Under the pieces are notes generated by a model. It was not told the DNA's origin. It ran no database searches and was given only the letters and a program-made list of their open reading frames with translations. Positions 3,632-63,857 of a stretch of 64,000 nucleotides of DNA are shown here, in pieces. This DNA is from an uncultured Chloroflexia bacterium (GTDB lineage: Bacteria > Chloroflexota > Limnocylindria > QHBO01). The DNA lies in assembly GCA_963825525.1 (NCBI GenBank), contig CAWGTN010000001.1:4725-68724 (forward strand), given 5' to 3'. The position numbers and the translations under genes were made by a program. How positions within the stretch are numbered: position 1 is the first letter of the stretch; every line of letters begins with the position of its first letter.

Positions 3632-3676
3632 TCGACGGGCGAGAGCCTCCGGAAATCCGCAACGGAAGTGGAGAAG

Positions 3677-4756
3677 ATGGGCGCACGGCGACCCACGCTG
3701 GAATCGCTTGCCACCGACCTTGGCGTGTCCCGCCAGACGGTGTGGAACGTGCTGAATCGACCTGCGGTCGTCGCCGAGCCCACTCGCCAGCGCATAGCGG
3801 CTGCCATCAGCGCCGCGGGCTACGTCCCTTCCCGCGCCGGCCGACAGCTGCGCACGCAGCGCTCGCACGCCATCGGCATTCGCCTGATGCCGACCTTCGA
3901 TGGCATCAACGGACACATCCTGGACACTTTTCTCCACGAGCTGGCCGAGCACGCCCATCGCTCCGACTATCGCCTCGCGCTGTTCGCCGCTGCCAACGAG
4001 ACGGACGAGATCGCCACCTATGCCCGGATGCGAGCGTCGAACGAGATCGACGGCGTAGTGCTCACCTCCACGACCATCGACGACGAGCGCATCACATGGC
4101 TCCTCGAGAACGATGTGCCGTTCGTGTCGTTCGGCCGGCCATGGCGCCGCGACGCCGATGCGACGACCGCACCGCATGACTGGGTGGACGTCGACGGAGC
4201 CGCGGGGACCGAGGCGGTCACGCGCCACCTCTTGGCGGACGGCCACGTCCGGATCGGCTACCTGTCGTGGCCGGCGCAGCCGGACGTCGGCGGCGACCGC
4301 CTCGCCGGCTGGGAGCGCGCGATGCGTCTCACCTCCGACGAGCTCGACCTCTCCACCCTCATGGCCGAGTGCTCGAATGACGTGACCGATGCGCGCCGCG
4401 CCGCCCGCGAGCTGCTCGACCGCGGGATCACCGCGTTCGTGTGCGCGTCCGATACGCTGGCGCTCGGCGCGCGAGCGGCCCTCGGTGCGCGGAGTCCAGC
4501 CGCACCACCTGTCCCCATCGTCGGCTTCGACGACACCCCTGTTGCCCGCGCACTGGGCCTCAGCTCAGTCGCTCAGCCGATCGTCCGCGCGGCACGAACC
4601 TCGGTTGCGCTGCTCGTGAGCCGGCTCGCCGGGGAGCGTCCGCCCGAGCATGTCCTGCTTCCCCCGTCACCGGTGTTCCGCGACTCCGAGATCGCCACAC
4701 CGTCGTTGTTCGAGAGCGTCGGAACCATCCAGGAGAAGGAGATCACCAACCCATGA
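3677..4756 (+). CDS. LacI-family transcriptional regulator
   Basis: N-terminal helix-turn-helix (PTLESLATDLGVSRQTVWNVLNRP) followed by a periplasmic-binding-protein-like sugar-binding domain. The open frame begins at a GTG at 3668; the start is chosen at the ATG at 3677. Confidence 0.85.
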   Translation: MGARRPTLESLATDLGVSRQTVWNVLNRPAVVAEPTRQRIAAAISAAGYVPSRAGRQLRTQRSHAIGIRLMPTFDGINGHILDTFLHELAEHAHRSDYRLALFAAANETDEIATYARMRASNEIDGVVLTSTTIDDERITWLLENDVPFVSFGRPWRRDADATTAPHDWVDVDGAAGTEAVTRHLLADGHVRIGYLSWPAQPDVGGDRLAGWERAMRLTSDELDLSTLMAECSNDVTDARRAARELLDRGITAFVCASDTLALGARAALGARSPAAPPVPIVGFDDTPVARALGLSSVAQPIVRAARTSVALLVSRLAGERPPEHVLLPPSPVFRDSEIATPSLFESVGTIQEKEITNP

Positions 4757-6040
4757 TTCACCGATTTCCGCGCGTGCCGGCCATCCTCGCCGCTTCCGCG
4801 CTCCTGCTCGCCGCCTGCGGCAGCGGATTCGAATCAGAGGCGCCGGGGTCAACGGCACCGGCGTCGGCGGATCCCGGATCATCGACCGATGCCAGCACGC
4901 CGGCCGAGGCCGGGGCCGATCTGACGATCCTCATCGGTTCATCGGGCGACGCCGAGACGAACCTGGTGAACGATCTTGTGGCCGAGTGGTCGGCCGAGTC
5001 CGGCGTGAATGCCGAGGTCGTCGTGGCATCGGACCTCAACCAGCAGCTCTCGCAGGGCTTCAGCTCGAACAGCCCGCCCGACCTGTTCTACCTCTCGACC
5101 GATCAGATGGCCGCTTACGCCGCCACCGATTCGCTCGAGCCATATGCGGAGTCGCTCTCGAACGCCGACGACTTCTACCCGAATCTGCGCGAGGCGTTCA
5201 CCTACGACGGACAGTTCATGTGCGCGCCGAAGGACTTCTCGACATTGGCGCTGATCATCAACTCGGATCATGTGGTCGGAGGCCGGACTGACCGACGACG
5301 ACATTCCGACGACGTGGGAGGAGCTCGCCTCGGTCGCCGAGCAGCTGACGACCGACGACCACGTGGGCCTGGCCTACGGGCCGGAGGTGCAGCGCATCGG
5401 CGTGTTCATGGCCGAGGCCGGTGGAGCGTTCATCGATGACGATGGCACGACGGCGGTCGTCGACTCGCCGGAGAATGCCGAGGCGCTCCAGTACGTCAAG
5501 GACCAGATGGCGGCCGGCACGTTCTCCTACTCGTCCGACCTCGGCGCGGGCTGGGGCGGCGAGGCGTTCGGCAACGGCCTGGCGGCCATGGTGATCGAGG
5601 GCAACTGGATCGCCGGCGCCATGACGAACGACTTCCCGGACGTCAACTATGTCGTGGCCGAGCTGCCGGAAGGACCGGGCGGCAAGGGCACGATCCAGTA
5701 CACGAACTGCTGGGGCATGGCGGCGCTGTCGGACAACATCCCCGGCGCGACATCGCTGGTCGAGCATCTGACCAGCACCGAGTCTCAGCTGGCCGCGGCC
5801 GAAGCCTTCGGCGTGATGCCGTCGGTGGCATCGGCGGCGGAGGAGTGGAAGGCGGCGTTCCCCGAGTTCGCGGCGTTCATCGATGGTGCCGAGTACGCCA
5901 TCAACCTTCCGGCCCAGCCGGGGACCGGCGATGTGATCAGTGACTTCAACTCGCAGCTCGAGACGCTGCCCGCCACGGAACCCGAGGCGATCCTCACCAG
6001 CGTCCAGCAGAGCCTTCAGGCCGCGCTGGACGATCAGTAG
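4753..6040 (+). pseudogene. Sugar ABC transporter substrate-binding lipoprotein (family 1), disrupted by a 1-nt frameshift near 5266-5272
   Basis: The N-terminal half (MIHRFPRVPAILAASALLLAACGS..., with a lipobox) is in frame 1. The C-terminal half (MWSEAGLTDDDIPTTWEEL...AGTFSY...) continues in frame 2. The junction ...INSD|MWSEAG... implies one extra C. Confidence 0.75.
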
Positions 6041-6150
6041 GCTCTCCTCCACAGTCCGGGGTGGCGCGCATCGCGCCACCCCGGCACGGTCCACGTTGGA
6101 CTCCGACGGCACCCGGACGGTGCTGACCTCGTTCACCGCTTGAGGGCGAG

Positions 6151-7189
6151 ATGATAGGTACGCGGTCGCGCGGCTCGATCCACGGTAACCGGGCCTTGGC
6201 GGGATGGCTCTTCGTCACCCCCGCCATCGTCATCATCGGCCTGTTCGTACTCGTGCCGATCGTCATGGCCGCCTGGGTCAGCGTTTCGGACTGGTCGGGC
6301 ATCGGTCCGCCCTTCGCCGAGGGCGTGAATTTCGTCGGTGTCGACAACTACGCCGAGCTGCTCGGTGGAACCGGTCTCGCCACGCGAGATCTCGGCACCG
6401 CACTCCGCAACAACCTGTTCTACGTGCTCCTTGTCGTCCCGCTCCAGACCGCCATCGCGCTGGGGCTGGCGATCCTCGTCAACCGGCGGGTCATGCGCGC
6501 CCGCGGCTTCTTCCGCACCGCGTTCTACTTCCCCTCGGTAACCTCGTCGGTCGCCATTGTCGTGCTGTGGCTCTTCCTGTTCAGCGCCACCGGGCCGGTG
6601 AACAAGGTGCTCAGCTGGGTCTGGATCGACGGCCCGAACTGGTTCCAGGACCCGCGCGGCATCTTCCACATCGTCTTCGGGGCCTTCGGCATCACCGGTG
6701 CCGGACAACCCGCTCAGCGGTGCGAACTTCCTGGGGATCAGCGGCTGGGACTGGGTCTCCGGCCCGTCGGTCGCCATGAGCGCATTCATCCTCATGGCCG
6801 TCTTCACCACCTCGGGCACGTTCATGCTCCTGTTCATCGCCGCCCTCCAGCAGATCAACGCCGAGGTCGAGGAAGCGGCCATGACCGATGGCGCGAACGC
6901 CTGGCAACGCTTCCGGTACGTCACCCTGCCGATGCTCAAGCCGATCGTCTTCACGGTGGTCACGCTCGGCCTGATCGGGACATGGCAGGTCTTCGACCAG
7001 ATCTACGTGGGCACGCAGGGTGGCCCGGCGAAGACGACGCTGACGCCGGCCTACCTGTCGTTCAACTCGGCGTTCAACAACTATGACTGGCCCCGTGGCG
7101 CGGCCATCGCCTTCATCCTGTTCGCGATCATCGTGGTTCTCACCGCCCTCCAGCGGCTGTGGATCGGACGGACCGAGGTGGGACGATGA
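6151..7189 (+). pseudogene. Sugar ABC transporter permease (MalF-like), disrupted by a 1-nt frameshift near 6690-6700
   Basis: The N-terminal 180 aa carry several transmembrane segments up to ...GIFHIVFGAFGIT, and then the frame changes. The remainder (PDNPLSGANFLGISGW...EAAMTDGANAWQRFRYVTLPMLKP, with the EAA motif) reads in the +1 frame through to 7189. Confidence 0.75.
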
Positions 7190-8020
7190 CTCGACGCGAA
7201 GGGCTGTTGGCGTGGGCGCCGTTCGTGGTGCTCATCGTGCTGGCGACCATCTACATCGCGCCGTTCCTCGTGCAGGTGGTCAACTCATTCCGGCCCGACG
7301 CAGATGTCGTTCGCGAGCCACTGTCCCTCGGGCTCGGGTCGTGGACCGCGGCAGCCTACGACCGCTTGTTCACCCGCAGTGACTTTCCGTTGTGGACCAT
7401 GAACTCGTTCATCGTCACGCTGTCCGTCACGGTTGGCCGAGTCTTCTTCGTCAGCCTGGCTGGCTATTCGCTGGCGCGCATCCCGTTCCGGGGCCGCAGT
7501 GTCGTGTACGCCCTGCTCATCGCCGTCATGGCGGTACCGGGCGTGGTGCTGTTGATTCCGAAATTCATCGTCATCAACCAGCTCGGCATGTACGACTCGT
7601 ACTCCGGAATGATCATCCCCCTGCTGGCCGATGCTGCGGGCGTGTTCATCATGAAGAACTTCTTCGAGTCGATCCCCGTCGCCGTCGAGGAGCAGGCTCG
7701 CATCGACGGGGCCGGGCGTGTTCCGAATCTTCTGGTCCATCGTGCTGCCGATGTCATTGCCGGCGGTGATGACCATCGTCATCCTCTCGTTCCAGGGGTC
7801 GTGGAACGAGCTCAGCCACTTCATCGTGTCGACCCAGAGCACCGACCTGACGACGCTCACCAAGGGCGTCGCGCAGCTCGCGTCCGGGCAGCTGAGCCAG
7901 GGCTCCCAGTTCCCGATCAAGCTCGCCGCCGCGCTGCTCATGACCGTCCCCGTCGCCGTGGTGTTCTTCATCTTCCAGAAGCGGATCATGAACGTCGGTG
8001 CCGGCGCAGTGAAGGAGTAG
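7186..8020 (+). pseudogene. Sugar ABC transporter permease (MalG-like), disrupted by a 1-nt frameshift near 7705-7720
   Basis: MTRREGLLAW...EEQARIDGAG is in one frame and FRIFWSIVLPMSLPAVMTIV... in another. The break falls within a gggccgggc run. The ATGA start overlaps the upstream stop. Confidence 0.75.
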
Positions 8021-8280
8021 CGGGAGCTCGAGCGTCGGCCGGACGGCGGAGCACCGGACCGAGGCTGATCCCATCACGGCGACATGCGCTTGCGGGGGAG
8101 TTTGCCCGTGCCTATAGTCGCGGTGGCGTCCTGCCCGACGCCCAAGCTCCGCCGGGTGCCTGCGTGACCCGCTCGAGGAGTCAAAGGGGATTGGTGTCCT
8201 CCGGGCGGACCTGACGGCCACGAAACCTGAGGGTCGTTGCGACGGTGCGCAGGACTGGTGCGGCGGCCGGAGGGCTTTCG

Positions 8281-9258
8281 ATGACCGAGCAGAAGCATCT
8301 CAAGGCGCTCATCCGATCCCGGATGGCGCGCACCGGTGAGTCATACACCAGCGCACGCAGCCACACCGTCAGGCACGAGGCGCGTCCGACCCTGACGCTG
8401 GCGGCCGAGTTCCGGGCCCACGACAAGCACTGCATGACGGCAGTCTTCACCGCCGATGGCGGACACATCGTCAGCGGCGGCTTCGGCGGCCAGGCACGCA
8501 TCTGGACACCCGACGGGACCCGGGTCGGCGAATTCGTCGGCCACGAGTCGGCCGTCAGCGTGGTGCGCATCTCGCCGGACGGAGCCACCGCCATCACCGC
8601 CTCATCCGACAAGACCGTCCGTACCTGGGATCTTCCGACGAGACGGCAGATTGCCGTGCTCGGAACGCATCGGAAGCAGGTCCTGGCACTCGATCTTGAC
8701 GCGGCGCGGGACCGGGTGTGGAGTGGTGGCCACGATGGCCGGCTCAACGCGTGGACCCTCTCGACAGGGGAGCGTGTGGCCCAGATCGATCTTGGCGGCA
8801 GTGTGTCTTCGGTCGCCGTGCGAGCAACGGATGGGACGGTGGCCGTAGCCACGGTTGGCGCCGGGATCGCGATCCTGGGTCCTGACGGCGAGGAGATGGT
8901 TCGCTTGGCCGAGGACGCCTCCGTCGTCGGCTCGGTGACGTGGGCGACCGACGGCGGCTTCATGCTTGCGTCGGGGCAACGCGTGGCCACGGTCTGGGCA
9001 TCGGACACCTGGCAGCTCGTGCGGTCGCTGGAGACGGGGCCGGGGAGCATGCTGCCGGCGGCGCTCAGTGATGACGGGGGCCGGATGGCGCTCGGATGGG
9101 ACCATCACGTGGGCCTCTGGAGCGCCGATGAGTCGCAGCAGGGCGTGGTGATCAACGACCTTCCCAAGGGCGTCTATGGCCTGGCGTTCTCGCCCGACGG
9201 TCGCTCCTTAGCTATGGCGGCGGCGGACGGTCGGGTTCGCGTCTGGTCAGTCACCTAG
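8281..9258 (+). CDS. WD40 / beta-propeller repeat protein with a short N-terminal DNA-binding-like module
   Basis: Repeated WD-like blocks are present (GHESAVSVVRISPDG, TASSDKTVRTWDL, SGGHDGRLNAWTL, AAADGRVRVWSV). The N-terminal MTEQKHLKALIRSRMARTGESYTSARSH resembles a ribbon/HTH-like peptide; that resemblance is tentative. Confidence 0.75.
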   Translation: MTEQKHLKALIRSRMARTGESYTSARSHTVRHEARPTLTLAAEFRAHDKHCMTAVFTADGGHIVSGGFGGQARIWTPDGTRVGEFVGHESAVSVVRISPDGATAITASSDKTVRTWDLPTRRQIAVLGTHRKQVLALDLDAARDRVWSGGHDGRLNAWTLSTGERVAQIDLGGSVSSVAVRATDGTVAVATVGAGIAILGPDGEEMVRLAEDASVVGSVTWATDGGFMLASGQRVATVWASDTWQLVRSLETGPGSMLPAALSDDGGRMALGWDHHVGLWSADESQQGVVINDLPKGVYGLAFSPDGRSLAMAAADGRVRVWSVT

Positions 9259-9503
9259 GAGCCTCCCGACCTGCACGATGCTGGGGCCGCTCTCGAACGA
9301 TGACGGTCTGCCGCGAGACGCCCATCACCCGCGCCAGGTCGGCCCGGCCGTGCAGGATCAGTCACGCATGCGGCGCCTTGGAGAGTGCTGCCAGCGGACG
9401 CCGGCAAAAGGGAGCCCGCCGGCGGGGAGTGTCCTCGCGGATCACTCGCCTGACCGACGGGCCCCGAATGCGCCTGGCGTTCAGAACTGTCTCACCACAC
9501 GCG

Positions 9504-10217
9504 TCAGGCGGACACAGGTGCTCGCCGAAGGACCGGAACCGAGACCTTCTCGGGCCGAACCGCCCACACCAGGCCACCGCCTGCGATCAGGAGAGTTGCG
9601 CCGAGTCCTGCGAACAGAGCCGCGAGGCCGAGACCGAGCTGGAGCGCGGAGGCAGTGACGGTCCCGACGCCGAGCTCACCGATCAGGGCGTGGGCCACGC
9701 CGGTCCAGGCTTGTGCGCGGGCCGGACCCTCGATCGGATGCTCGCGATTGAAGTCGGCCCAGTAGCGGCCGTCCACCGCGAACTCGTACGTGCCGGCGGC
9801 GAACAGCTCGCCGTTGTAGGTGACGTCCTCCGCGAGGACGATGGTCTGGGTCGAGTTCAGGGTGTGATAGGCGACCGTCGCCATCTGGAACATGTACTCG
9901 CTGCCGGTATTGACGATCGGGTCAGCCGGGTCGAGCTCGCCGGCGACGACGGGGTAGCCCCACTCATCGGTCAGCAGACCCATGATTGCCTGCGCGCCTT
10001 CGGGCTCGCCGCGATCGACGAGCTGGCCGGCTTCGTTGTAGCTGAGCTCGACGCCCTGTGCCGCGCTGAACGCGTTCAGGGATGCCTGTCCCTCCTGGAC
10101 CTTGAAGAAGGCAAAGCCTCCAGCGACGACGAAGGCGAGGCCGATGAGGCCAAGCACGATGCCGAGGCCCTTCAATCGATTGATCACGGTACTTCTCCCG
10201 TTTCCCTGTGCGTTCAA
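9504..10217 (-). CDS. Hypothetical membrane-anchored protein
   Basis: An N-terminal signal anchor (GLGIVLGLIGLAFVVAGGFAFF) and a second C-terminal transmembrane segment. Amino-acid composition is protein-like. It lies downstream of, and on the same strand as, the ECF sigma gene, so an anti-sigma role is possible but unsupported. Confidence 0.6.
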   Translation of the reverse strand: MNAQGNGRSTVINRLKGLGIVLGLIGLAFVVAGGFAFFKVQEGQASLNAFSAAQGVELSYNEAGQLVDRGEPEGAQAIMGLLTDEWGYPVVAGELDPADPIVNTGSEYMFQMATVAYHTLNSTQTIVLAEDVTYNGELFAAGTYEFAVDGRYWADFNREHPIEGPARAQAWTGVAHALIGELGVGTVTASALQLGLGLAALFAGLGATLLIAGGGLVWAVRPEKVSVPVLRRAPVSA

Positions 10218-10408
10218 AGCCTCATGGCTCCGGTGTGCTCACCTTCGCCGCTGCGCCTGCCTGAGCGCAGTACCGAACGGCCCCCTCTCGCCGGCCAGAT
10301 GGCCCCCGACCGGGAAGTCAGGGGGTCTGCAGTGTGATTTCGTCAAACGAGCCATCCCGGGGTGCGGCGCTACCGCTTGCGGCGCCGTCGCGGGATCACG
10401 TGGGAGTC

Positions 10409-11128
10409 TCAAGGGGCGATCGCCAGACGCGGTCTCTTCCCGATGTTGGTTCGTTGGCGGTCCCCACGCTCGCGCCTGGGCTGGCGGGAGTCGTCACGGA
10501 CGAGTGCGGTGAGTGACGGGATGTCATCCCGCTCGAAGGCGTCCGTGTAGCGACCAAGCAGTGCCCGGTGCTCGGGACGCATCGGCTCGGGTGCGCCGCA
10601 TTCCTGCCGGGCGGCGAGCGTGACCCGGGCACGCTGGAGGGCGCTATTGACCGAGGCGACGCTCGTGCCGAGCAGCTCCGCCGCCTCGCTTGCTCGCCAA
10701 CGCAGCACCTCGCACATGAGGAGCACGGCGCGCTGGCGCGGCGGGAGGTGCTGGATGGCCACCATGAAGGCCTGGCGAACGGACTCCCGTGCGAGGACCG
10801 CCTCTGCAGGGTCGCCGCCCGATGACCATGGATGTGCATCGGGCGACCTCGGCTCGATCTGTGCCTCGGCATCCGTCGCAGTGCCGGGATCCATCGGCAC
10901 TGTCCGGCGCTGCGGATGGGCCAGCATGTCCAGGCAGACGTTTCTCGCGATGCGATACAGCCAGGTGCGCAGCGTGGCGCGGCCCTCGAATTGCTCGTGT
11001 GCGCGCCAAGCCCGCAGGAGCGTCTCCTGGACGGCATCCTCGGCCTCGAACCGGGAGCCCAGCACACGGTACGCGTAGCCGATCAGCTCTGCCCGGTACC
11101 GTTCCAGCGGAGCCTGGTGGATTGTCAT
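10409..11128 (-). CDS. ECF-family sigma factor (SigJ-like) with a C-terminal extension that may be truncated
   Basis: Region 2 (DAVQETLLRAWRAHEQF...TWLYRIARNVCLD) and region 4 (LPPRQRAVLLMCEVLRWRASEAAELLGTSVASVNSALQRARVTL). The tail ends in low-complexity SRQPRRERGDRQRTNIGKRPR. Confidence 0.8.
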   Translation of the reverse strand: MTIHQAPLERYRAELIGYAYRVLGSRFEAEDAVQETLLRAWRAHEQFEGRATLRTWLYRIARNVCLDMLAHPQRRTVPMDPGTATDAEAQIEPRSPDAHPWSSGGDPAEAVLARESVRQAFMVAIQHLPPRQRAVLLMCEVLRWRASEAAELLGTSVASVNSALQRARVTLAARQECGAPEPMRPEHRALLGRYTDAFERDDIPSLTALVRDDSRQPRRERGDRQRTNIGKRPRLAIAP

Positions 11129-11315
11129 GACGTGAGGGTGCATCGGGCGACGGACGGCGTGAAACACCGCCTGCCGATGGAGTCACAACGCCAGATGGTG
11201 AGTCCCCGGCCTCCACGGCCGATGACGTCGCGCGGCTAGACTTCATCGGACTCCGGAGGCCGGTTGCTGGCGTCCGAATGCACCTGAAGCAGGTCAATCC
11301 ACGTCTCCTTCGTCC

Positions 11316-12551
11316 ATGGATGTGTTGCAGCGTGACGTCAGCCGACGGCGGTTCCTCGGGATGGCCGGGTCCGCGGCCCTGGCGACGATCCTGGCTGCGT
11401 GTGGAGCCTCCGCCCGGAGCGCCGCTCCCTCCGCGACGCGTTCAGTGACGCCGAGCCGCAGCCCGGCGCCTCCGCCGACGGCACCGACTGCCTCGCCCAC
11501 GCCCTCACCCGCGGGGCTGAGCCTGCGCGATCAGGTCGCCCGGATGCTGCTCGTCGGATTCCGGGGCACGACGGCCGACGAGGCATCGGCCACGCTGGCC
11601 GACATCCGCGACCTGTCCCTGGGTGGCGTCCTGCTCTTTGACGTGGACGTGCCGACCCGCGCCCGCGTCCGGAACATCGTCTCGCCGACCCAGCTGCGCG
11701 AGCTCACCGCTGCACTGCACGATGCCGCGGGCGGTCGTGGGCTCATCGTCGCCGTCGACCAGGAGGGAGGGCGCGTTGCGCGTCTCGGTCCGGATCGCGG
11801 ATTCCCGGCGACGGTCAGCGCGGCCGGCCTGGGTGCCCGCGCGGACGTCGAATTCACCCGGGCCGCCGCCGTCGAGATGGCCGGGACCCTGGCTGACGCG
11901 GGCATCAACCTCAACCTGGCGCCGGTGGTGGATCTGAATCTCAACCCGGGCAACCCGATCATCGGCGCGCTCGACCGAAGCTTCGGTGCCGATCCGGAGC
12001 TCGTCGTCGCCCAGGCCGAGGCATTCATCAGCGGTCATCGCGATCTCGGGGTGCGAACGGCGCTCAAGCACTTCCCCGGTCACGGCAGTGCCACGGCCGA
12101 TACCCACCTGGGCGTGGTGGACGTCACCGGCTCGTGGCGAGAGGTCGAGCTCGATCCGTTCCGCCGGATCGTCGCCGACGGGCTGTGCGATGCCGTCCTC
12201 ACCGCCCACGTGTTCAACGCTCGATTGGACCCGGCGCATCCCGCAACCCTCTCCACGCCGATCATCACCGGGATCCTGCGTGACCAGGTCGGTTGGGATG
12301 GGGTGGTGATCAGCGACGATCTGCAGATGGGCGCCATCCGGCAGCAGTTCGGCTACGACGAGGCGGTGGCCCTGGCCATTGAGGCCGGCGTGGACCTCTT
12401 GACGATTGCCAACCAGCAGGTTTTCGAAGAGGGGATCGTGAGCCGGACCTTGGATCTGGTTGAAGAGATGGTGCGCTCCGGTCGCATCGGGGAGGATCGC
12501 ATTGCCGCCAGCGTGGAACGCCTGGATCGGTTCGTGAGCAGTCCTCAATGA
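11316..12551 (+). CDS. Glycoside hydrolase family 3 N-terminal-domain protein (NagZ / beta-hexosaminidase-like) with a Tat signal and lipobox
   Basis: RRRFLGMAG...LAAC signal. The KHFPGHG and DxxL catalytic-region motifs of the GH3 N-domain are present. Confidence 0.85.
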   Translation: MDVLQRDVSRRRFLGMAGSAALATILAACGASARSAAPSATRSVTPSRSPAPPPTAPTASPTPSPAGLSLRDQVARMLLVGFRGTTADEASATLADIRDLSLGGVLLFDVDVPTRARVRNIVSPTQLRELTAALHDAAGGRGLIVAVDQEGGRVARLGPDRGFPATVSAAGLGARADVEFTRAAAVEMAGTLADAGINLNLAPVVDLNLNPGNPIIGALDRSFGADPELVVAQAEAFISGHRDLGVRTALKHFPGHGSATADTHLGVVDVTGSWREVELDPFRRIVADGLCDAVLTAHVFNARLDPAHPATLSTPIITGILRDQVGWDGVVISDDLQMGAIRQQFGYDEAVALAIEAGVDLLTIANQQVFEEGIVSRTLDLVEEMVRSGRIGEDRIAASVERLDRFVSSPQ

Positions 12552-12657
12552 ACTCCATCGCCCGGGTGATCTGGGCGATGTTCCGGACCGATCCGATCCG
12601 GCCGCGAATGTCCTTCAGGCTCGGCATCTAGCTGGACTTCTCCATGCGCTGCGCTGC

Positions 12658-12836
12658 TGCTCGATAGTTCGCGGGATTCGCGCATGAGCACCGTTCGGCG
12701 TGCGATTTCCGCGATCAATCGAGCGTGTCGACGCTGGAACTGCACGCCGGCGGGCCACTCGTGCGGCCGGTCCATCGATAGATCGCGGGGATCGCACCTG
12801 AACAGCCGGTAATGTGAAATTCCCTCGATCTATCGT
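12658..12836. repeat. Intergenic module of four copies of a quasi-palindromic 14-16 bp motif (CTCGATAGtTCGCGGG-like), arranged as two inverted pairs about 48 bp apart. A homologous module lies at 62541-62711
   Basis: Motif copies are at 12658-12676, 12709-12725 (inverted), 12774-12790 and 12824-12835 (inverted). The second pair forms a perfect 10-bp stem, CGATAGATCG/CGATCTATCG. The sequence between the arms is also conserved against the second locus (CCGGT..GTGAA..TCCCTCGA). Confidence 0.6.
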
Positions 12837-13152
12837 CATGAGGCGCTCTTTCCACCCTTGTCGGCATCCGCGTCGGCATCGGCCTCGGGATCGGCGACAT
12901 CGGCATCGGCGTCAGGACGGCGACATCGGCGGCTGCGTCCTCGACGACCCGTCCAACGTTGGGACGGAGCCGCCGAAGATCTCCACCGGGAGGGGGCATG
13001 ACCATTGATGTTGTGGACAAGTTCGTGGACAGACCCCTTCCGAAATGCGATGGCCGCGGCCTACGATCCGCCCCGGTCCGTATCCTTGTCGTTCGGATCA
13101 ATCGCCCGGAATCATCCATCTCAATCAACTGAATCCTGGAGGGTGCCATCGC

Positions 13153-30472: not shown

Positions 30473-33139
30473 ATGCCCTCGACGGTTCTGAATGACCTTC
30501 TCATCGCGGCACGGCGACGATCTCGGGCTGACGCGCGCGTCACCCCCCTTTCCGAGCTGCGCCGCGATATCGCCCGCCTGCCGGCTGCGCGACGATTCGA
30601 GGCAGCGCTGCGGTACGACGACCGCGTGGCGCTGGTCGCCGAGGCGAAGCGGGCCTCGCCGTCAAGCGGCGAGTTCGCGGTGGCCCGTGGATCGGCGGCG
30701 ATCGTGGAGCTCGCCCGGGGGTACGCGGCGGCCGGCGCCGCGGCGCTCTCGATCCTCACCGAGCCGACGCGGTTCGGTGGCAGCGACGACGACCTCGTGG
30801 CCGCCGCGCGCATCGGCCTGCCGGTGCTGCGCAAGGATTTCGTCGTCGATCGCTACGGCATCTGGCAGGCCCGCTGGCTCGGCGCGGACGCCGTGCTGCT
30901 CATCGTGCGGGCGCTTGGGCCGGACGAGCTCCGCTCGCTCATCGAGGAGGCCGGACGCGCCGGGGTCGACGCGCTGGTGGAGGTGCATGACGAGCGCGAG
31001 CTCGATACGGCGCTCGAGGCGGACGCGACGCTCATCGGCGTGAACGCGCGCAACCTCGAGACCCTGGCGGTGGACCTCGCCGCATCTCTGCCGCTGATCG
31101 CTCATGCGGCGGATGCGGGTGCGACGGTGGTGGCGGAGAGCGGGATGTCCTCGGCCGCGGACGTCGCCCAGGCCGGCGCCTGCGGGGCACATGCGGTGCT
31201 GATCGGGACCGCGCTGCTTCGTGAGCCGGACCCGGCGGCGGCCGCGGCAGGCATGGTGGCGGCGGCGCCGCAACGGAGACCGACGGCACGGCTGCCGTAT
31301 CCCTCGCGGCCGGCGGTCAAGGCCTGCGGGCTGCGGGACCGCGCGTCGGTGCAGGCGGCCATCGCGGCGGATGCCGATCTTGCCGGGTTCATCCTCGACC
31401 CCGCGTCCCCGCGCAGCGTCGACGTCGGGCGCGCGGCGGAGCTCATCGGCTCGATGCGCCGGCCGCGGCCCGTGCTCGTGTTCCGGGCTCCCACGCACCG
31501 GGAGGTCACGGACGCGGTTGAGGCGACGAAGGCGTCCGCCATTCAGCTCGCAGGGTTCGATGCACCGCCGGCGTGGCTCGGCGGGCTCGGCTCGACGGTC
31601 GACACCGTGATCGGCGTGCTCCACCAACCGGCCTCCGTGCGACAGGCCCTGCTGGCCGCCGAAGCATGGATCGCCGGCGGGGCGACCCACCTTCTGCTCG
31701 AGGGGGCCGCGCGCGGCGCCGGCGGGGGATCGGGCAGCGGCGCGCCGCGCGACATCGCGCGACGCCTCAACCGGATCGTGCCGGTCGGAATCGCGGGGGG
31801 CCTGACACCGGCCACTGTCGCCGGAGCGGTGCGGGACGCCCGCCCGGCCCTCGTCGACGCGGCGAGCGGACTGGAGCGCGATGGCACATCGGATCCCCGG
31901 CGCATCGGTGCCTTCGTGCGCAATGCTCGCCGGGAGGCCGCCGGCGGTGACCGGGTCGATGTCACGGGCCGCTTCGGCCGCTTCGGGGGGCGCTTCGTGC
32001 CGGAGACGCTCATTCCTCCGCTGGAAAACCTTGAGGCTGCCTGGTCGGCCGCCGGCAGAGACCGTGGCTACCGCGACGACCTCGAGCGCCTGTACCGCGA
32101 CTTCGTCGGCCGTCCGACGCCGATCTTTGCGATTCCTCCAGACGCCCTGCGGGGGCGGGGCGGGCGTGGGGCGACGCTGTGGCTCAAGCGAGAGGACCTC
32201 GCCCACACCGGCGCCCACAAGATCAACAACGCGGTGGGACAGACCCTGCTGGCCCAGCGCATGGGGAAGCCGCGCATCATCGCCGAGACCGGTGCCGGGC
32301 AGCATGGCGTTGCGACGGCCACCGCGTGCGCGCTGCTCGGCCTGAAGTGCGTCGTCTACATGGGCACCACCGACATCGAGCGCCAGGCGCCGAACGTACG
32401 ACGGATGGACCTGCTGGGCGCTGAGGTCCGGCCGGTGTCGACGGGCAACGGCACCCTGCGCGACGCTCTGAACGAGGCGCTGCGTGACTGGGTCGCCAAC
32501 GTGGAGGACACGTTCTACGTTCTCGGCTCGGCTGCCGGCCCGCATCCCTACCCGGAGATGGTGGCCACGCTGCAGTCGGTCATCGGTCGCGAGAGTCGCG
32601 CCCAGATGCTCGAGGCCATCGGTCGCATGCCGGACGCGGTGGTGGCGTGCGTCGGTGGCGGCAGCAACGCCATCGGGATCATGCGGCCGTTCATCGATAC
32701 CGCCACGCGGCTCATCGGGGTCGAGGCGGGAGGACGCGGTGACGGGCTGGGCGACAACGCGGCGTCGCTCGGCCTCGGAGCGCCGGGCGTGCTGCACGGT
32801 GCCTTCACCATGCTCACCCAGGACGCTGCCGGACAGGTGGTCGAGCCGCACTCGGTCAGCGCCGGACTCGACTATCCGGGCGTTGGGCCGCAGCTCGCCG
32901 CACTCGCCGAGTCCGGCCGCATGGAGGTGGCACGTGCCACGGACGCCGAGGCCCTCGCGGCCACGGGGTGGCTGGCTCGCACCTGCGGAATCATCCCGGC
33001 CCTCGAATCCGCGCACGCCCTGGCGGCGGCACTCCGCATGCTGCCGGAGCTCGACGGCGATGCCCACCTCCTCATCAACCTCTCCGGCCGGGGCGACAAG
33101 GACATGGGCATCCTGGACCACGAGCTTGCCACCACATGA
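30473..33139 (+). CDS. trpCFB: Apparent trifunctional fusion: indole-3-glycerol-phosphate synthase (TrpC), phosphoribosylanthranilate isomerase (TrpF) and tryptophan synthase beta (TrpB) in one uninterrupted frame
   Basis: The TrpC domain spans aa 1-270 ([37 protein letters not shown]). The TrpF domain begins at VKACGL and runs to [21 protein letters not shown]. TrpB begins at [15 protein letters not shown] and includes [13 protein letters not shown] and the PLP region. There is no stop between 30473 and 33139, and no in-frame start lies between the TrpF and TrpB segments. Confidence 0.8.
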
Positions 33140-51463: not shown

Positions 51464-51491
51464 TTGACACGGTTCGGGCAGCGCGTATAGT
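51464..51491 (+). promoter_or_regulatory. Sigma-70-like promoter, TTGACA-N16-TATAGT, upstream of the ArsR operon
   Basis: TTGACA lies at 51464-51469 and TATAGT at 51486-51491. Confidence 0.55.
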
Positions 51492-51498
51492 TCCGTTA

Positions 51499-51510
51499 GG
51501 TTATATAACC
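51499..51510. promoter_or_regulatory. Perfect 12-bp palindrome GGTTATATAACC, likely the ArsR/SmtB operator
   Basis: It sits between the -10 element and the ribosome-binding site of the ArsR gene. Confidence 0.55.
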
Positions 51511-51524
51511 GAAAGGTGATCGAG

Positions 51525-51896
51525 ATGGGGAATGCGGACCAGCTCAGCGCGACCTTCGCCGCACTCGCCGATCCGACGCGGCGCGCAATCCTCGCGCGTC
51601 TGGCGGTGGGCGAGGCATCGGTCAAGGAGCTGACGCTGCTGTCCGACATGACCCAGCCCGCGGTCTCGAAGCATCTCCGGGTGCTGGAGCGAGCGGGATT
51701 GATCGAGCAGGGGAGGCATGCGCAATGGCGACCACGCCGGTTGCGTGCCGATCCGCTCCGGGACGTGGCCGACTGGGTCGGCACGTATCGGCCGCACTGG
51801 GAGGAGCGCTTCGATCGGCTCGACGCCTTCCTCCGCGATCTCAATGAACGGCAGCAACCGCAGGAAGGAACCGACGATGACCGCGACCAGGACTGA
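51525..51896 (+). CDS. ArsR/SmtB-family transcriptional regulator
   Basis: ALADPTRRAILARLAVGEASVKELTLLSDMTQPAVSKHLRVLERAGLI forms a winged helix-turn-helix. Confidence 0.85.
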   Translation: MGNADQLSATFAALADPTRRAILARLAVGEASVKELTLLSDMTQPAVSKHLRVLERAGLIEQGRHAQWRPRRLRADPLRDVADWVGTYRPHWEERFDRLDAFLRDLNERQQPQEGTDDDRDQD

Positions 51897-52377
51897 CCGA
51901 GGCAGCACCGACTCCACGACGATCTACTCGGAGAACGGTGACCTCACCTACGAGCGCATCTTCGCCGCGCCACGCGAGGCCGTGTGGAAGGCGAACACCG
52001 ATGCCGAGCTCATTCCCCTGTGGTGGGGACCGCACGGAACGTCCACCACCGTCGCCGAGATGGACGTTCGTCCCGGTGGTGCGTGGCGCTTCGTGAGCAG
52101 CGGCCCGGATCGCGAGGACGTCGCGTTCTACGGCGAGTACCTCGAGGTGGTGCCGCCGGAGCGCATCAAGTGGACGTTCATGTTCGACGTCGAAGGTGTG
52201 GGTCCGCAGGGCGGGCCCGAGACGCTCACGCTGGAGGATCTGGGCGACGGGCGAACCCTGATGCGGGCCGTGTCGCACATGGGATCCGAGGAGATCATCG
52301 AGCAGGCGCTGGCGACGGGCATGACGCAGGGCGCGATCGAGACGTGGGATCGGCTGGAGGCACTGTTGGCGGCTTAG
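51877..52377 (+). CDS. SRPBCC-superfamily protein (Aha1 / activator-of-Hsp90-ATPase-homolog-like)
   Basis: Overlaps the ArsR stop. Its composition and size fit the AHSA1/polyketide-cyclase-like fold that commonly pairs with ArsR. Confidence 0.7.
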   Translation: MTATRTDRGSTDSTTIYSENGDLTYERIFAAPREAVWKANTDAELIPLWWGPHGTSTTVAEMDVRPGGAWRFVSSGPDREDVAFYGEYLEVVPPERIKWTFMFDVEGVGPQGGPETLTLEDLGDGRTLMRAVSHMGSEEIIEQALATGMTQGAIETWDRLEALLAA

Positions 52378-52575
52378 TTGAGCGAGCCTCAACCACGTTG
52401 ACCGGGTCCGACCGGGCCCGGTCGCTTGGTGAGCGGGAAATCGCGCAGTAAGCCGCTGGTAATCGACGGGGCGCATGATCGGCGCAGCGGTGTGGGAAGC
52501 GTGCCCTGCGCCGCCGGCCCGGGTTATCCGGCCAGGGCCGGCGGCCCACGCCGCACCATCACGTGGGAGCCCGCC

Positions 52576-53341
52576 GTGCGATACGAGCTCATCGGACGCG
52601 GACTGCGGGCCTTGCGGCATCCGGCACGGCTTGCGCCAGGCAGGACGTCGCCGCAGCGCTGCGGAGCTGAGCCGCGCGGTGATCTCCGACCTCGAACACG
52701 GCCGGATCGAACACCATTCGTTGGCAGCGCTGGTGTCAGCGGCTCATGCGCTCGGGGCGACGCTTCGGATCGACCTCGGCATGCCGGGCGGTGATCTCCA
52801 TCGGTTGCTGGATGCCGACCATGCGTGGCTCCAGGCCGAATGGGCAGGGCTGCTCGAGCGTTCCGGCTGGCTGGCCGAGGCGGAGCGCACGTTCAACCAT
52901 TACGGCGAACGAGGCAGCATCGATCTGATCGCGTGGCACCCGCCGAGCCGAGTGCTGCTTGTTGTCGAGATCAAGACCGTGATTGTCGACGTGCAGGATC
53001 TGCTCGCCGGCATCGATCGTAAGGTGCGCATCGGCGAGATCCTCGCTCGGCAGCACGGGCGGACCGTTTCAAGCGTCGTTCCGGCGCTGATCATTGCCGA
53101 AGGCTCGACGTCGCGGCGCCGCCTCCAGTCGCACGCGGCCCTGTTCCGTCGGTTCGCGCTGCGTGGACGTTCGGCTGTCGCCTGGCTGCGGGCTCCCGCT
53201 GCGGGCGTGGCGCCGACGGGGATCCTGTGCATGTCCAAATTGTCAGGTGCGCATCCTGGCGACCGTAGACGCGCTGGGCGTCAGCGAGTGCGGCTCCGCA
53301 CTCGGGATCCACGCTCAGAGTCCGATGCTCGACGGGCATGA
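52576..53341 (+). pseudogene. XRE-type HTH fused to a PD-(D/E)xK nuclease-fold domain; the HTH is broken by two 1-nt shifts about 25 nt apart
   Basis: The HTH pieces fall in three frames: YELIGRGLRALRHPARLA, then RQDVAAAL, then ELSRAVISDLEHGRIEHHSLAAL. The C-terminal domain has GSIDLIAW...VVEIKT (a D...E.K motif). Confidence 0.5.
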
Positions 53342-53355
53342 CGGCGCCGATATCG

Positions 53356-53498
53356 CGCCTAGCGTCGCCAGGATGCGCAGGTGACGACAGAACGGCCGCT
53401 TGGCGCGGATACCGTCGCCAGGATGCGCAGGTGACGACAGACCGGCCGCTCAGGGCCGATACCGTCGCCGAGATGCGCAGGTGACGACACGCGTCGCG

Positions 53499-53505
<7 letters not shown>
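53356..53505 (+). repeat. Tandem direct repeat, about 2.7 copies of a 50-bp unit
   Basis: Copies at 53360, 53410 and 53460 share TACCGTCGCCAGGATGCGCAGGTGACGACAGA. A partial inverted copy (TGCGCATCCTGGCGAC) lies at 53249-53264. Confidence 0.8.
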
Positions 53506-55254
<1,749 letters not shown>

Positions 55255-55313
55255 CTTGGGGGCAGGGCCGATGTCCCCGCAACCGTGACGCCGCAACGTG
55301 GCAGGATTCGCCC

Positions 55314-57338
55314 ATGAGCGATGACTTCGATTTCGATGCCTACCTTCGTCTGCCTCGCCTCTCGGGCCTCGGCGCCTCACCCGACGGCCAACGCCTGGTC
55401 GTCAGCGTCGGGCGGCCGGCACCCGATGGCAAGAAGATGCACTCGTCCCTGTGGGAGCTGGATGCCAGCGGCGATGAGCGACCGCGCCGCCTGACTCGAT
55501 CCGCACCGGGTGAGAGCGCGGCCACGTTCGCCCGTGACGGCTCGATCCTCTTCACCTCGAGCCGGCCGGATCCGGATCGCGGGCCGGACGACGGAGCGGA
55601 TGACGAAGAGATCTCCGGCCTGTGGCTGCTGCCGCCGAACGGTGGCGAGGCGCGCCTGCTGGCGGCGCCGTCGGGCGGCGTCGATGCGGTGGTCTCCGCT
55701 CGGGACGCCGATGTCGTGGTCTATGCAGCGTCGGTCTTCCCGGGAACCCGGGACGCGGCGAGCGACCTCGAGCGTCACAAGGCACGGAAGAAGGCCGGTG
55801 TCGACGCGCTCCTGTTCGAGACCGTCCCGATCGGTCATTGGGACTCGTACCACGGACCACGGGAACGGCACCTGTTCGCTGCGCCGATGCCGGCGGGCGA
55901 GGATCGCATCGGCGACCCGAAGGACCTGACGCCGGACGCGGGCATCGCCCTCACCGAGCAGGGCTTCGACGTGACCCCGGACGGCGCCACGATCGTCACC
56001 GGGTGGGTGACGAGTGACGAGATCGGCCGGACCGACTTCGGGCTCATGGCGATCGATCGCGCGACAGGCGAGCATCGGCGGATCACGACCGAGGACAGCT
56101 GGTTCGACAGCCCGGCCTGCTCACCCGACGGCCGCTGGGTGGCCTGCGTGCGCTCGGACAAGGACGTTCCGGAGCGAGTCGGCGACGCCACGCTGTGGCT
56201 GATCGACCTGGCGACCGGGGACGGGCGCGATCTCACCCCCGACCTCGACCTCTGGCCGCAGCACCCTGTCTGGTCGGAGGACGGGACGGCCATCTGGTTC
56301 ACCACCGATCGACAGGGCGCCGGTGCCGTGTTCCGCCACGACATCGGCTCCTCGACCACGACCCTCGTGGCCGACGACGGCACCTTCACCGACCTGTCGG
56401 TCCATGCCGCCGGCGGGCCGGTGGCACTCAGCAATTCGTACGCGGATCCTCCCCATCCGGTTCGCCTTGGCGAAGACGGCGCGAGCCAGCGCCTGCGCAG
56501 CTTCGCCGAACTCGATGCCGATGCCATCGCGAAGCTCCCGGGACGTGTGGAGCGCGTCCGCGCCGAGGCATCGGACGGACAGGAGATCGGGTCGTGGCTG
56601 GTGCTGCCGCGCGACGCGTCCGCGGCGGCGCCGGTTCCGCTCGTGGTGTTCGTTCACGGCGGGCCGATCGGCAGCTGGAACGCGTGGACGTGGCGCTGGA
56701 ACGCGCACCTGCTGGCGGCGAAGGGCTACGCGGTCCTGATGCCCGATCCCGCGATCTCCACCGGCTACGGCCACGCCTTCGTCCAGCGCGGCTGGGGCCG
56801 ATGGGGCGCCGAGCCCTACACCGATGTCATGGCTGCCGTGGATGCCGCTCTGGAGCGGCCAGAGCTCGATACGGAGCGCACGGCTCTCATGGGTGGTTCG
56901 TTCGGCGGCTACATGGCGAACTGGGTGGCCGGCAACACCGACCGCTTCCGGGCCATCGTGACCCACGCCAGCCTGTGGGAGCTTCGCGGCTTCCATGGCA
57001 CCACCGACTACGGCCCGGACTGGGAGCGGGAATTCGGCGATCCGTACACGGATCCGTCGCGCTACGAGGAATGGAGCCCCAGCCGGCTGCTTGCCAATAT
57101 CCGCACCCCGATGCTGGTCATCCACGGCCAACGTGACCTGCGTGTACCCGTCAGCGAGGGACTGCGGCTATGGACCGACCTGCGGCGCCACAACGTTCCC
57201 GCGAGGTTCCTCTACTTCCCCGACGAGAATCACTGGATCCTCAAGCCGCAGAACGCGCGCCTCTGGTACGAGACCGTCTGGGCGTTCCTGGATGAGCACG
57301 TTCGTGGCGCCGAATGGCGCCGGCCGTCATTGCTGTGA
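55314..57338 (+). CDS. S9-family serine peptidase (dipeptidyl aminopeptidase / acylaminoacyl-peptidase type)
   Basis: Beta-propeller N-terminal domain (SPDG repeats) and an alpha/beta hydrolase C-terminal domain with GGSFGG and a HGQRDLRVP catalytic region. Confidence 0.85.
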
Positions 57339-57488
57339 CGATTGCGGCACGCCGAGTGCATGAGGAGGCGGCATGTTTGGATTGATTCGCCGCTTCGTCG
57401 TTGGCTGGCTGCTCGTGAGGCTGCTTCGCCGATTCACCCAGGGCTCGTCTCGGACGAAACCCCGCCGCTAGTCCCCCGGCAAGACCGG

Positions 57489-58440
57489 TCAGCGGGCGCG
57501 GGCGGCCTCGCGCTCGAGGATCTGCGCCCGCTTGGCCTCGAACCGCGACGCCTGGGCGTCGAGGTTGGTGAGGAACGCGCGAAGCTCGGTGCGGCGCCGC
57601 TCGGCCGACGGGTCAATGCCCTCGAGTTCGAAGACGCCCCAATGCGCCAGGAGCGGCCAGACGACGTCGTCGTGATGGACCCGCAGGTCGTAGATACCGG
57701 CCTTCGCCATCTGGGCGGCCTTGCGGGTGAAGTTCACCATCCCTGATCCGGGCATCTGGAAGTCCATGATCTCGTCCGCGATCGCATGCACGGCGGCGGA
57801 CGGGATCGATCTTCATGGCCTCCGACAGCATGTCCCGATAGAAGACCATGTGAAGGTTTTCGTCGGATGCGATGCGGGTCATGATCCTGTCCGCCACCGG
57901 GTCGGACGAGTAGCGCCCCGTGTTGCGGTGGCTGATCCGCGTCGCCAGCTCCTGGAACGCCACGTAGGCCAGGCCGCGCAGGACGTTGCCACCATCATCG
58001 TGGTCATAGGCGGTCTGCAGCTGGTTCATGCGTCCGCGCTCCAGCGCAATCGGATCGATGTTGCGGGTCACCACGAGGTAGTCGCGCAGCACGATGGCAT
58101 GGCGCCCTTCCTCGGCGGTCCATCGGTTCACCCAGTTGATCCACGGGCCGTCGCCGCGGCCGAACATTCGGTGGATCTCGCGGTGATAGCTCGGCAGGTT
58201 GTCCTCGGTCAGGAGGTTGACCTCGAACGCGATCTGCGCCACGCCGCTGATGCGGGGCTGGTCCGGCGTCCAGGGATCCTTGTCGAAATCACGGCCCATC
58301 GAATACGGGATGTAGTCGTGTGGGAACCACTCCTTGGCCATGCCGAGGTGGCGGTTCAGCAGCATCTCGGCCGCGGGCTCGAGCTCGGTCAGGAGGTCGC
58401 GGGGAGGCGTGAAGGAGGGGGTCTCGATCTGGGTCGTCAT
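57489..58440 (-). pseudogene. Soluble acyl-ACP desaturase (DesA1/DesA2-type di-iron enzyme), disrupted by a 1-nt frameshift near 57790-57800
   Basis: Di-iron motifs EEGRHAIVLRDYL and DENLHMVFYRD are in one frame up to ...MKIDP. The normal continuation (AVHAIADEIMDFQMPGSG...) lies in another frame. Confidence 0.75.
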
Positions 58441-58541
58441 CGGGTGCTCCGGTAGCGGGAAGGCGCACCGCTGACCGACGCGCAGGAATGATACGTTTGA
58501 AGTTTATCGTCGCATGAATCGGGCCAACATGCGCGTCGGCC

Positions 58542-58961
58542 TCAGGTTCGTCGTTGATCCTCGCCGTGGATGCCGCGCCCCTCGAGCAGGCGGACGAGAC
58601 CGTCGATGTCGTCGACCGTGACCGTGAGTGACTCCATTCGTCCACCAAGGACGTAGCGAGAGGGGACCCATTCCTCGAAGCACAGGCACACTCCGCCATG
58701 CGTGCTGGTGCCGAAGGTGAAGCCCCGATCGGCGCCGGACGCGTGCGGGCCGATCGCCCTCCAGAAGCGATAGGGCCCGGTGATCAGGTACCCGCTCACG
58801 TTTTCCATCGGCGTCTCGAGGCTGAACGGGCCGAATCGGGCCAGCAGGCGTCCGTCGGCGGTGATGGTGACCTGGGCTGCGCCCGGCTTGACGCCGAGGA
58901 GTCGGAGCGGCCACCGCCACGGATTGGCGAATCTCAGGGGAAAGGTCGCGTCCCCGCTCAT
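58542..58961 (-). CDS. Hypothetical protein of about 140 aa
   Basis: Open frame immediately downstream of the glutamate dehydrogenase gene, with a protein-like composition. No family assigned. Confidence 0.45.
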   Translation of the reverse strand: MSGDATFPLRFANPWRWPLRLLGVKPGAAQVTITADGRLLARFGPFSLETPMENVSGYLITGPYRFWRAIGPHASGADRGFTFGTSTHGGVCLCFEEWVPSRYVLGGRMESLTVTVDDIDGLVRLLEGRGIHGEDQRRT

Positions 58962-58966
58962 GACGG

Positions 58967-60226: not shown

Positions 60227-60271
60227 GGGCTCAGCCTAGCGCGAACCGCGGGCCGCGGAATGCCCGTCTCG

Positions 60272-61450: not shown

Positions 61451-61562
61451 CGCCAGAGTCTAGGTGGGGTGGCAAGATATGCCCGTCCAATCCAGATCGT
61501 CGCGCCGGCTGCCTGCATATTTGCCGATCGGCGCGTCACCGCATCCCAGAGGAGGACCGCCG

Positions 61563-62501: not shown

Positions 62502-62540
62502 GGACGTTGGGTGCCAGTTGCATGGGCGTTCGATGTATGA

Positions 62541-62711
62541 GTCGAAATCGCGCGCAGGGCGGGTACTACGCGCTGATGCTGCGATATATCGAGCGGCTGG
62601 GAGCGTGAAGCGCGCCGCGGCGTGCTCGTCACGTGTGCCGGCGCTCGATAGATCGCGGGAACCGCACGCGGCCCGGCCCTCCGGTGAACATCCCTCGAAA
62701 TATCGCGCAGC
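62541..62711. repeat. Second copy of the intergenic motif module described at 12658-12836
   Basis: Motif copies at 62541-62557, 62579-62596 (inverted), 62643-62667 and 62692-62711. The region from 62643 aligns with 12774-12836 at about 65% identity. Confidence 0.6.
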
Positions 62712-62750
62712 CCCCGGGTTGTGGCATGTCACGCGTCCATACTTCGGCCC

Positions 62751-63779: not shown

Positions 63780-63857
63780 GGTGGCGGTTGGCGCAGGATC
63801 TGCACTCGGAAGGTCGGGCGCATACTGAAGGCCCACCCGCAAGGAGAATGATCTGCA

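Follow-up and report, generated by a model that had tools for sequence, protein, structure and literature searches.

Single-base frameshifts in three sugar importer genes of a soil Limnocylindria genome are very probably errors of the assembled consensus

Has a soil bacterium recently lost a sugar importer, or were the three frameshifts that interrupt its transporter genes introduced when its genome was assembled? The DNA analysed here, a stretch of 64,000 nucleotides (the window), comes from a Candidatus Limnocylindria (Chloroflexota) genome obtained from a metagenome; the locus groups with Candidatus Limnocylindria/Chloroflexota MAGs, and a pseudogene-rich actinobacterium similar to Leifsonia xyli, which the GC content of 68% had suggested as a source, was rejected on this ground. 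A sequence-only reading of the window had offered two interpretations, real pseudogenisation of the uptake system and locally poor consensus. Of these, poor consensus was upheld, while pseudogenisation was disfavoured by the privacy of the insertions, the retained constraint, repair by one base per gene and the damage to other genes. On comparative evidence, the three insertions are very probably errors of the assembled consensus rather than mutations in the organism, whose importer operon is probably intact and functional.

The three transporter genes form an ordinary sugar ABC importer operon of the CUT1 type, adjoining the genes for a LacI regulator and a GH63-like hydrolase (Table 1). As in other CUT1 (MalEFG-like) importers, an SBP_bac_1/SBP_bac_8 lipoprotein is encoded with two BPD_transp_1 permeases that carry an EAA loop, next to a LacI gene and a glycoside hydrolase gene. 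The binding protein has a lipobox (LLAAC) close to its N-terminus, both of its pieces match PF13416 (SBP_bac_8) and PF01547 (SBP_bac_1) at contiguous profile positions, and intact 428-aa homologues were found at 99% and 98% identity. The repaired permeases both match PF00528 and contain the EAA-type loops EEAAMTDGAN (permease 1) and EEQARIDGAG (permease 2). The LacI and hydrolase genes are intact, as had been reported. The hydrolase gene is divergent from the LacI gene, has a 640-aa orthologue in the same-species contigs and showed no window-private indel in comparison with them. The regulator would be 362 aa long if its start is the GTG at 3668; its orthologue on contig_13676 has 359 aa. The gene order of the locus is kept in more than 10 Limnocylindria genomes.

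Table 1. Features of the sugar importer locus and the three extra bases (positions in the window)
Feature	Position	Strand	Description
Glycoside hydrolase, 640 aa	1626..3548	-	Intact; GDE_N_bis and MGH1-like/GH63-like domains (Pfam)
LacI-family regulator, 359 aa	3677..4756	+	Intact; Pfam LacI, Peripla_BP_1, Peripla_BP_3
Sugar-binding lipoprotein gene, CUT1-type	4753..6040	+	428 aa after repair; 1 extra base in record
Extra base 1	5269	+	Window GGATCATG; same-species contigs GGATATG; most sister species GGACATG
GC-rich hairpin, 13-bp perfect core	6054..6087	+	Between binding-protein and permease genes
MalF-like permease gene (permease 1)	6151..7189	+	345 aa after repair; 1 extra base; Pfam BPD_transp_1
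Extra base 2	6705..6706	+	Window GCCGGACAAC; contig_13676 GCCGGCAAC; contig_2439 GCCGGAAAC
MalG-like permease gene (permease 2)	7186..8020	+	277 aa after repair; 1 extra base; Pfam BPD_transp_1
Extra base 3	7712	+	Window GGGGCCGGGC; all relatives GGGGCGGGC

Four transporter genes had been counted at this locus, but there are only three. No ATPase gene is present, the gene that follows permease 2 (8245-9258) encodes a WD40 protein according to Pfam, and no ABC_tran gene was found at the equivalent locus of the same-species contigs. In this the locus differs from MalEFG-like importers. It is common for CUT1 systems of Gram-positive bacteria and Chloroflexota to rely on a shared MsiK-type ATPase that is encoded elsewhere. 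The lack of an ATP-binding subunit in the operon indicates that the locus supplies the membrane and binding part only, which fits a shared ATPase encoded elsewhere.

The previously reported single-nucleotide frameshifts in the three transporter genes were confirmed, and their exact sites were established (Table 1). The window was segmented by a codon-usage score, as an initial segmentation by GC3 was too noisy. All three genes switch from frame 1 to frame 2, indicating one extra base in each, and the phase of GC3 flips at ~5270, ~6700 and ~7710. The Pfam profiles continue across the breaks, from positions 3-102 to 105-273 of SBP_bac_8 in the binding protein and from 3-92 to 95-177 of BPD_transp_1 in the MalG-like permease, where the break falls within the EAA coupling loop. 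Comparison with orthologous loci, which had been proposed as a check, showed that the reading frame continues unbroken through each of the three sites in 11 sister species, where the alignment places one extra base per site in the window. The same holds for contig_13676 and contig_2439 of the same species, one of which has 98.3% and the other 99.1% nucleotide identity to the window; the same-species comparators are different strains at 0.3-2% divergence.

Deletion of one base per gene yielded ORFs of 1287, 1038 and 834 nt for the binding protein, the MalF-like permease and the MalG-like permease, which are the lengths found on contig_13676, and left no internal stop in any of the three. Both repaired permease proteins are 100% identical to those of contig_13676. 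In an exact look-up, the intact permease sequences were recorded on contig_13676 only; the broken transporter fragments are recorded as called genes on one contig of 289,786 bp only (NCBI and ENA). The changes derived in the lineage of the window comprise 16 synonymous substitutions and 1 non-synonymous substitution in the three genes, indicating that constraint on them is not relaxed, and GC3 remains ~0.9 downstream of each shift.

The extra bases lie at synonymous third codon positions that vary among relatives. At 5269, the T and C alleles of an Asp codon are both present in the window, as seen from the sequences of the same-species contigs and most sister species. At 6705/6706, A and C, both alleles of a Gly third-position SNP, stand in tandem. 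The base at 7712 falls on the synonymous third position of an Ala codon, where sister species have G, A or C. The second allele at 5269 and at 7712 is known only from other species, so that, of the three transporter insertions, only the one at 6705 is shown to combine alleles that both occur in sampled strains of the species. In the whole window, 3 of the 10 isolated insertions that are private to it (6705, 39893 and 54036) consist of both alleles, in tandem, of an SNP seen among the other strains, compared to a chance rate of 0.5-1%, and this suggests that strains were collapsed in a consensus of the Nanopore/Flye type. Two other sources of error were examined and rejected. Homopolymer errors do not apply, as none of the three sites is in a long homopolymer; several indels touch GATC, but their enrichment at this methylation motif, as expected from basecalling errors, was not significant (6/54 versus a 6.5% background, p = 0.14).

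We therefore propose, as the most likely route, that reads of closely related, co-existing strains were merged into a single long-read contig, one of the Nanopore/Flye+Medaka type. At SNPs between the strains, the consensus would keep both alleles side by side, adding one base and shifting the frame. The relatives in the databases bear names of two kinds, 'MFD...bin' for MAGs and 'contig_N' for ENA assemblies, and from these relatives and the contig naming the window contig itself would be a Nanopore MFD assembly. MFD-LR MAGs are Nanopore-only and were produced by Flye --meta assembly with one round of Medaka (PMC12313526). Nanopore consensus indels are a known cause of frameshifted gene calls (PMC9262707). 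The lesions in the window are similar to those described there, in that private single-base indels split conserved genes, a one-base edit repairs them, and those in the importer are missing from a cleaner contig of the species (contig_13676). However, the classic account emphasises deletions within long homopolymers, whereas the errors found here are mostly insertions outside homopolymers, a significant fraction of which are two strain alleles in tandem.

The damage is not confined to the importer. The earlier contrast with no frameshifts in the other long genes is wrong: single-base indels private to the window also interrupt genes at 39893, 46094, 51022, 52617/52642/52666, 54036 and 57804. 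At least six further genes are broken, encoding an oligopeptide-binding protein, a Cys-tRNA-synthetase-like protein that is likely important, a 5'-3' exonuclease, an XRE regulator, a methylmalonyl-CoA mutase and an acyl-ACP desaturase. Five of these were test-repaired with one edit each; the XRE regulator gene, with three insertions in 50 nt, was outside that set. In addition, a patch at 10316-10356 (45 nt) contains seven single-base indels. The indels are zoned, occurring at 5-13 kb and at 39-58 kb, with none over the 27 kb between (12917-39893), and the trp fusion, E1 and potABCD genes on which the claim of intact genes had relied fall in that indel-free stretch. With at least six other genes broken, three hits in 3.3 kb are unremarkable: for 9-11 gene-breaking indels in ~58 kb, the scan statistic gave P = 0.29-0.68 for some three within 2.45-3.3 kb, and the cluster does not exceed chance. 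Lesions were thus not concentrated at the locus relative to the background, as those of a pseudogenised operon should be.

Gene breaks are also found in every long-read contig of the species, in a different set of places each time. They affect the genes for LacI, permease 2, a sigma factor, E1 and others in contig_2439; the trp fusion, SpoIID and methylmalonyl-CoA mutase in contig_4305; and an SBP_bac_5 gene in contig_18897. Isolated private one-base insertions numbered 20 in contig_2439, 10 in the window, 7 in contig_4305 (3 from the region-B alignment, where the contig is named L031, and 4 from region C) and 2 in contig_18897. Contig_13676 had no private indel in the 16 kb compared, and all genes there are full length. 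A GCGCC at 46094 has lost one base in the window and another in contig_2439; such independent losses are the mark of a site prone to error and not of common descent. The short-read Logan contigs L033 and L035 had 0 gaps relative to the window in the parts they cover, which lie away from the three transporter sites, and Logan short-read contigs, again away from these sites, agree with the majority at private indels of other long-read contigs. Such a pattern, with private indels in one assembly and different ones in other assemblies of the species, is what an artefact would leave.

An artefact could also have arisen by another route, namely, generic low-coverage long-read consensus noise without strain mixing, which we regard as possible and somewhat doubtful. 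Nanopore MAGs below ~40x coverage are known to retain indels (PMC9262707), and the seven-indel patch resembles a poorly supported stretch. For all private deletions, and for seven of the 10 isolated insertions private to the window, no second allele could be demonstrated, as noise would predict; however, only two to three strains were sampled, so that most allele merges would escape detection. Noise also does not account for the excess of tandem alleles over the chance rate, and the zoning of the indels fits local strain heterogeneity.

Very recent real pseudogenisation, in which three independent one-base insertions were fixed and one strain lost its uptake system, appears very unlikely. The insertions are present in the deposited sequence, a first dead gene in the operon would make the remaining genes neutral, and the adjoining 4.9-kb segment that is missing in sister species marks a variable neighbourhood. 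However, three neutral indels predict many substitutions, for the most part non-synonymous, whereas 16 of the 17 changes are synonymous and the repaired permeases are identical to those of a sister strain. All three lesions are insertions, against the bias of bacterial mutation towards deletions, and at 6705 the alleles of two strains stand side by side. Lesions of the same kind also affect the Cys-tRNA-synthetase-like gene, the methylmalonyl-CoA mutase gene, the exonuclease gene and others, a broken share that is implausible for a free-living soil bacterium. Several adjacent genes interrupted by small indels are also found among the genuine pseudogenes of reduced genomes such as those of Mycobacterium leprae and Leifsonia xyli subsp. 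xyli. The lesions in those organisms are reproducible between isolates and accompanied by relaxed constraint and further decay, whereas those in the window are private to one assembly, being absent from contig_13676, contig_2439 and the 11 sister species, with very low dN/dS, no further stops after repair and permeases equal to those of the sister strain. If the insertions were true in one strain, a conserved sugar importer would just have been lost, and the tandem-allele pattern would be coincidental. Programmed +1 ribosomal frameshifting or transcriptional slippage that restores each frame in vivo would agree with the shared direction of all three shifts but has a negligible probability, as the extra base is absent in every relative, same-species strains included, so that there is no conserved recoding site, the three sites share no slippery homopolymer or common motif, and the same lesions occur in unrelated genes.

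If the transporter lesions are an assembly artefact, the finding itself is ordinary; the biology is that of a conserved sugar importer, and the practical lesson concerns data quality. In some zones, genes on the window contig and on sister long-read contigs of the same species are broken by an indel about once every 5-8 kb. At such a rate, pseudogene calls, metabolic reconstructions and inferences of a missing transporter from such MAGs are unreliable unless reads or sister assemblies are used to check them. From sequence alone, the tandem alleles hint that collapsed strain diversity, and not homopolymer miscalling, may be a main source of error. Tandem-allele insertions may form a recognisable and correctable error class in collapsed-strain long-read MAGs, detectable by comparison of sequences.

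Three further features of the locus were observed. The importer borders a 4.9-kb segment that is absent from sister species. The GH63/MGH1-like hydrolase hints at a substrate of the glucosyl-/mannosyl-glycerate type or an alpha-glucoside. The region 6038-6150, which includes the hairpin, has an MFE of -58.1 kcal/mol (z = -3.3), and the hairpin is probably an intercistronic stem-loop.

In the ORF listing and translation of the window, which has a GC content of ~68%, the binding-protein, permease 1 (MalF-like) and permease 2 (MalG-like) genes each start in frame 1 and continue in frame 2. Pfam profile coordinates are continuous across the breaks: SBP_bac_8 3-102 continues as 105-273 in the binding protein, BPD_transp_1 3-92 continues as 95-177 in permease 2, and the C-terminal piece of permease 1 covers profile positions 47-177. 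GC3 switches phase at ~5270, ~6700, and ~7710 and is still ~0.9 downstream of each. The three frameshifts noted in the sequence-only reading are thus confirmed by ORFs, Pfam coordinates, and GC3 phase. That reading counted four transporter genes; the locus has only three, with a WD40-repeat protein gene next, and Pfam detected no ATPase gene there. The C-terminal fragments left by the breaks (256, 163, and 100 aa) were found as called genes only on one 289,786-bp contig in NCBI and ENA, and the lesions are therefore present in the public record.

The three frameshifts are almost certainly assembly artefacts; the locus is otherwise that of an ordinary, conserved CUT1-type sugar importer. A protein search returned binding proteins of 428 aa, intact and 99% and 98% identical. 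The contigs carrying them, together with contigs reached via exact window proteins, formed the same-species set: contig_13676 (ERZ25039476; loci L030 and L036), contig_2439 (ERZ25039530; L029 and L034), contig_4305 (ERZ25039498; L031, L037, and L041), contig_18897 (ERZ25039476; L032), and five short Logan contigs (L033, L035, and L038-L040). The long-read contigs were mostly 96.8 to 99.7% identical to the window in nucleotides, with contig_4305 down to 95.4% in the last 12.5 kb (51481-64000). The insertions were absent from both same-species contigs covering the sites, contig_13676 and contig_2439. In contig_13676, no private indel was seen across the 16 kb compared, and all genes are full length (359 aa for LacI, 428 aa for the binding protein, and 345 and 277 aa for the permeases). 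The repaired binding-protein query also matched 14 Chloroflexota/Candidatus Limnocylindria MAGs at 78 to 96% protein identity, many with names of the type MFDxxxxx.bin.x.y (MFD, Microflora Danica). In this comparison with orthologous loci in sister genomes, which had been proposed as a check, all three genes are unbroken in 11 of the 14, with the two window pieces meeting end to end; nucleotide alignments with sister species show one extra base, peculiar to the window, at each of the three sites. In three other MFD MAGs (L011, L013, and L014), the frame of these genes is broken as well, at different positions.

A codon-usage scan and translations flagged more split genes, and six further genes are broken by single-base indels that are private to the window in the comparison with same-species contigs (window-private). 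The earlier claim that other long genes carry no frameshift therefore does not hold; the intact genes it listed fall between 12917 and 39893, where the window has no indel. Finding three of the 9 to 11 gene-breaking events (58 kb) within 2.45 to 3.3 kb has a probability of 0.29 to 0.68. The frameshift observation is correct as sequence, yet it is not special.

Features of the transporter locus and window-private indels
Position	Feature	Observation
4753..6040 (+)	binding protein	extra base at 5269
6054-6087	hairpin	strong, GC rich; 13-bp perfect core; z = -3.3
6151..7189 (+)	permease 1	extra base at 6705/6706
7186..8020 (+)	permease 2	extra base at 7712
8245-9258	WD40-repeat protein gene	next after permease 2 (Pfam)
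10316-10356	intergenic 45-nt patch, non-coding	7 single-base indels and several mismatches vs both same-species contigs
12651, 12917	non-coding	private indels
39893	oligopeptide-type SBP_bac_5 (oligopeptide-binding protein)	single-base indel; long open frame regained by single-base edit
46094	Cys-tRNA-synthetase-like, 603 aa in relatives	single-base indel; frame regained likewise
51022	5'-3' exonuclease	single-base indel; frame regained likewise
52617, 52642, 52666	XRE regulator	three insertions in a 50-nt stretch
54036	methylmalonyl-CoA mutase	single-base indel; frame regained likewise
57804	acyl-ACP desaturase	single-base indel; frame regained likewise

Many private gene-breaking indels also occur in the sister long-read contigs. 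These affect LacI (cut to 236 aa), permease 2 (window position 7503), a sigma factor, the WD40 gene, E1 (split into 463 and 300 aa), and others in contig_2439; the trp fusion (in three pieces), SpoIID, and methylmalonyl-CoA mutase in contig_4305; and an SBP_bac_5 gene in contig_18897. Logan contigs L033 and L035 have no gaps relative to the window and agree with the majority at every private indel of another long-read contig. Both the window and contig_2439 have lost one base of GCGCC at 46094, though not the same one (GCCC versus GCGC); independent losses of this kind mark an error-prone spot and not common ancestry.

The sequence at 6705 is GGACAAC in the window, GGCAAC in contig_13676, and GGAAAC in contig_2439. 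The two alleles thus stand in tandem in the window, as they do at 39893 (C/G) and 54036 (C/G). This pattern was found at 3 of 10 isolated window-private insertions, versus a simulated chance rate of 0.5 to 1%, and at two further sites in contig_2439. The extra bases at 5269 (T+C) and 7712 (C+G) lie at synonymous third positions, with the alternative allele found in sister species. Reads of co-existing strains would have been collapsed in the assembly, with the consensus retaining both alleles where strains differ. The binding-protein gene is also a hotspot of real divergence between strains: at 4930-5470 (codons 62 to 239) the window differs from contig_13676 by 39 mismatches per kb, nearly all of them synonymous, compared with mostly 0 to 8 (up to 17 at 8 to 9 kb) in other 1-kb bins. 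This peak suggests recombination or several co-existing haplotypes. The MFD-LR catalogue is Nanopore only, assembled with Flye --meta --nano-hq and one Medaka polishing round (PMC12313526), and frameshifted gene calls are a known effect of Nanopore consensus indels (PMC9262707). From its relatives and its own sources, we infer that the window's contig is part of this catalogue. Plain low-coverage noise may contribute to events other than allele merges, and the intergenic patch at 10316-10356 resembles a short run of consensus without local support.

Real pseudogenisation, the other of the two readings offered earlier, is disfavoured by the absence of the extra bases from same-species contigs, the same kind of indel in six other window genes, and the tandem-allele insertions, including 6705. 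It is also at odds with the exact one-base repair: once each gene loses one base, the ORFs measure 1,287, 1,038, and 834 nt, as in contig_13676, each ending in its only stop codon, and the repaired permeases are 100% identical to those of contig_13676. With three neutral indels, many substitutions would be expected as well, most of them non-synonymous. No such load was seen in the three genes, where window-lineage substitutions, polarised with two outgroup species, were 16 synonymous and 1 non-synonymous. Poor consensus was thus the better of the two readings, the insertions being private and repairable. A GATC-linked basecalling error was tested and was not significant. Programmed frameshifting is excluded because the extra base is absent from all relatives.

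The fused tryptophan-biosynthesis gene (IGPS-PRAI-TrpB; ~30530-33133) is whole in the window, split in contig_4305, and at least 980 aa in contig_18897; E1 is called as 1,090 aa in contig_4305. Every same-species contig has the ~4.9-kb segment at 8028-12972, which carries the genes for the WD40 protein and an ECF-type sigma factor, a 227-aa gene, and a GH3 NagZ-like gene; the closest sister species, L001 and L002, both lack it at this position. The hairpin just past the binding-protein stop codon is probably an intercistronic stem-loop, predicted to set how much binding protein is made relative to permease.
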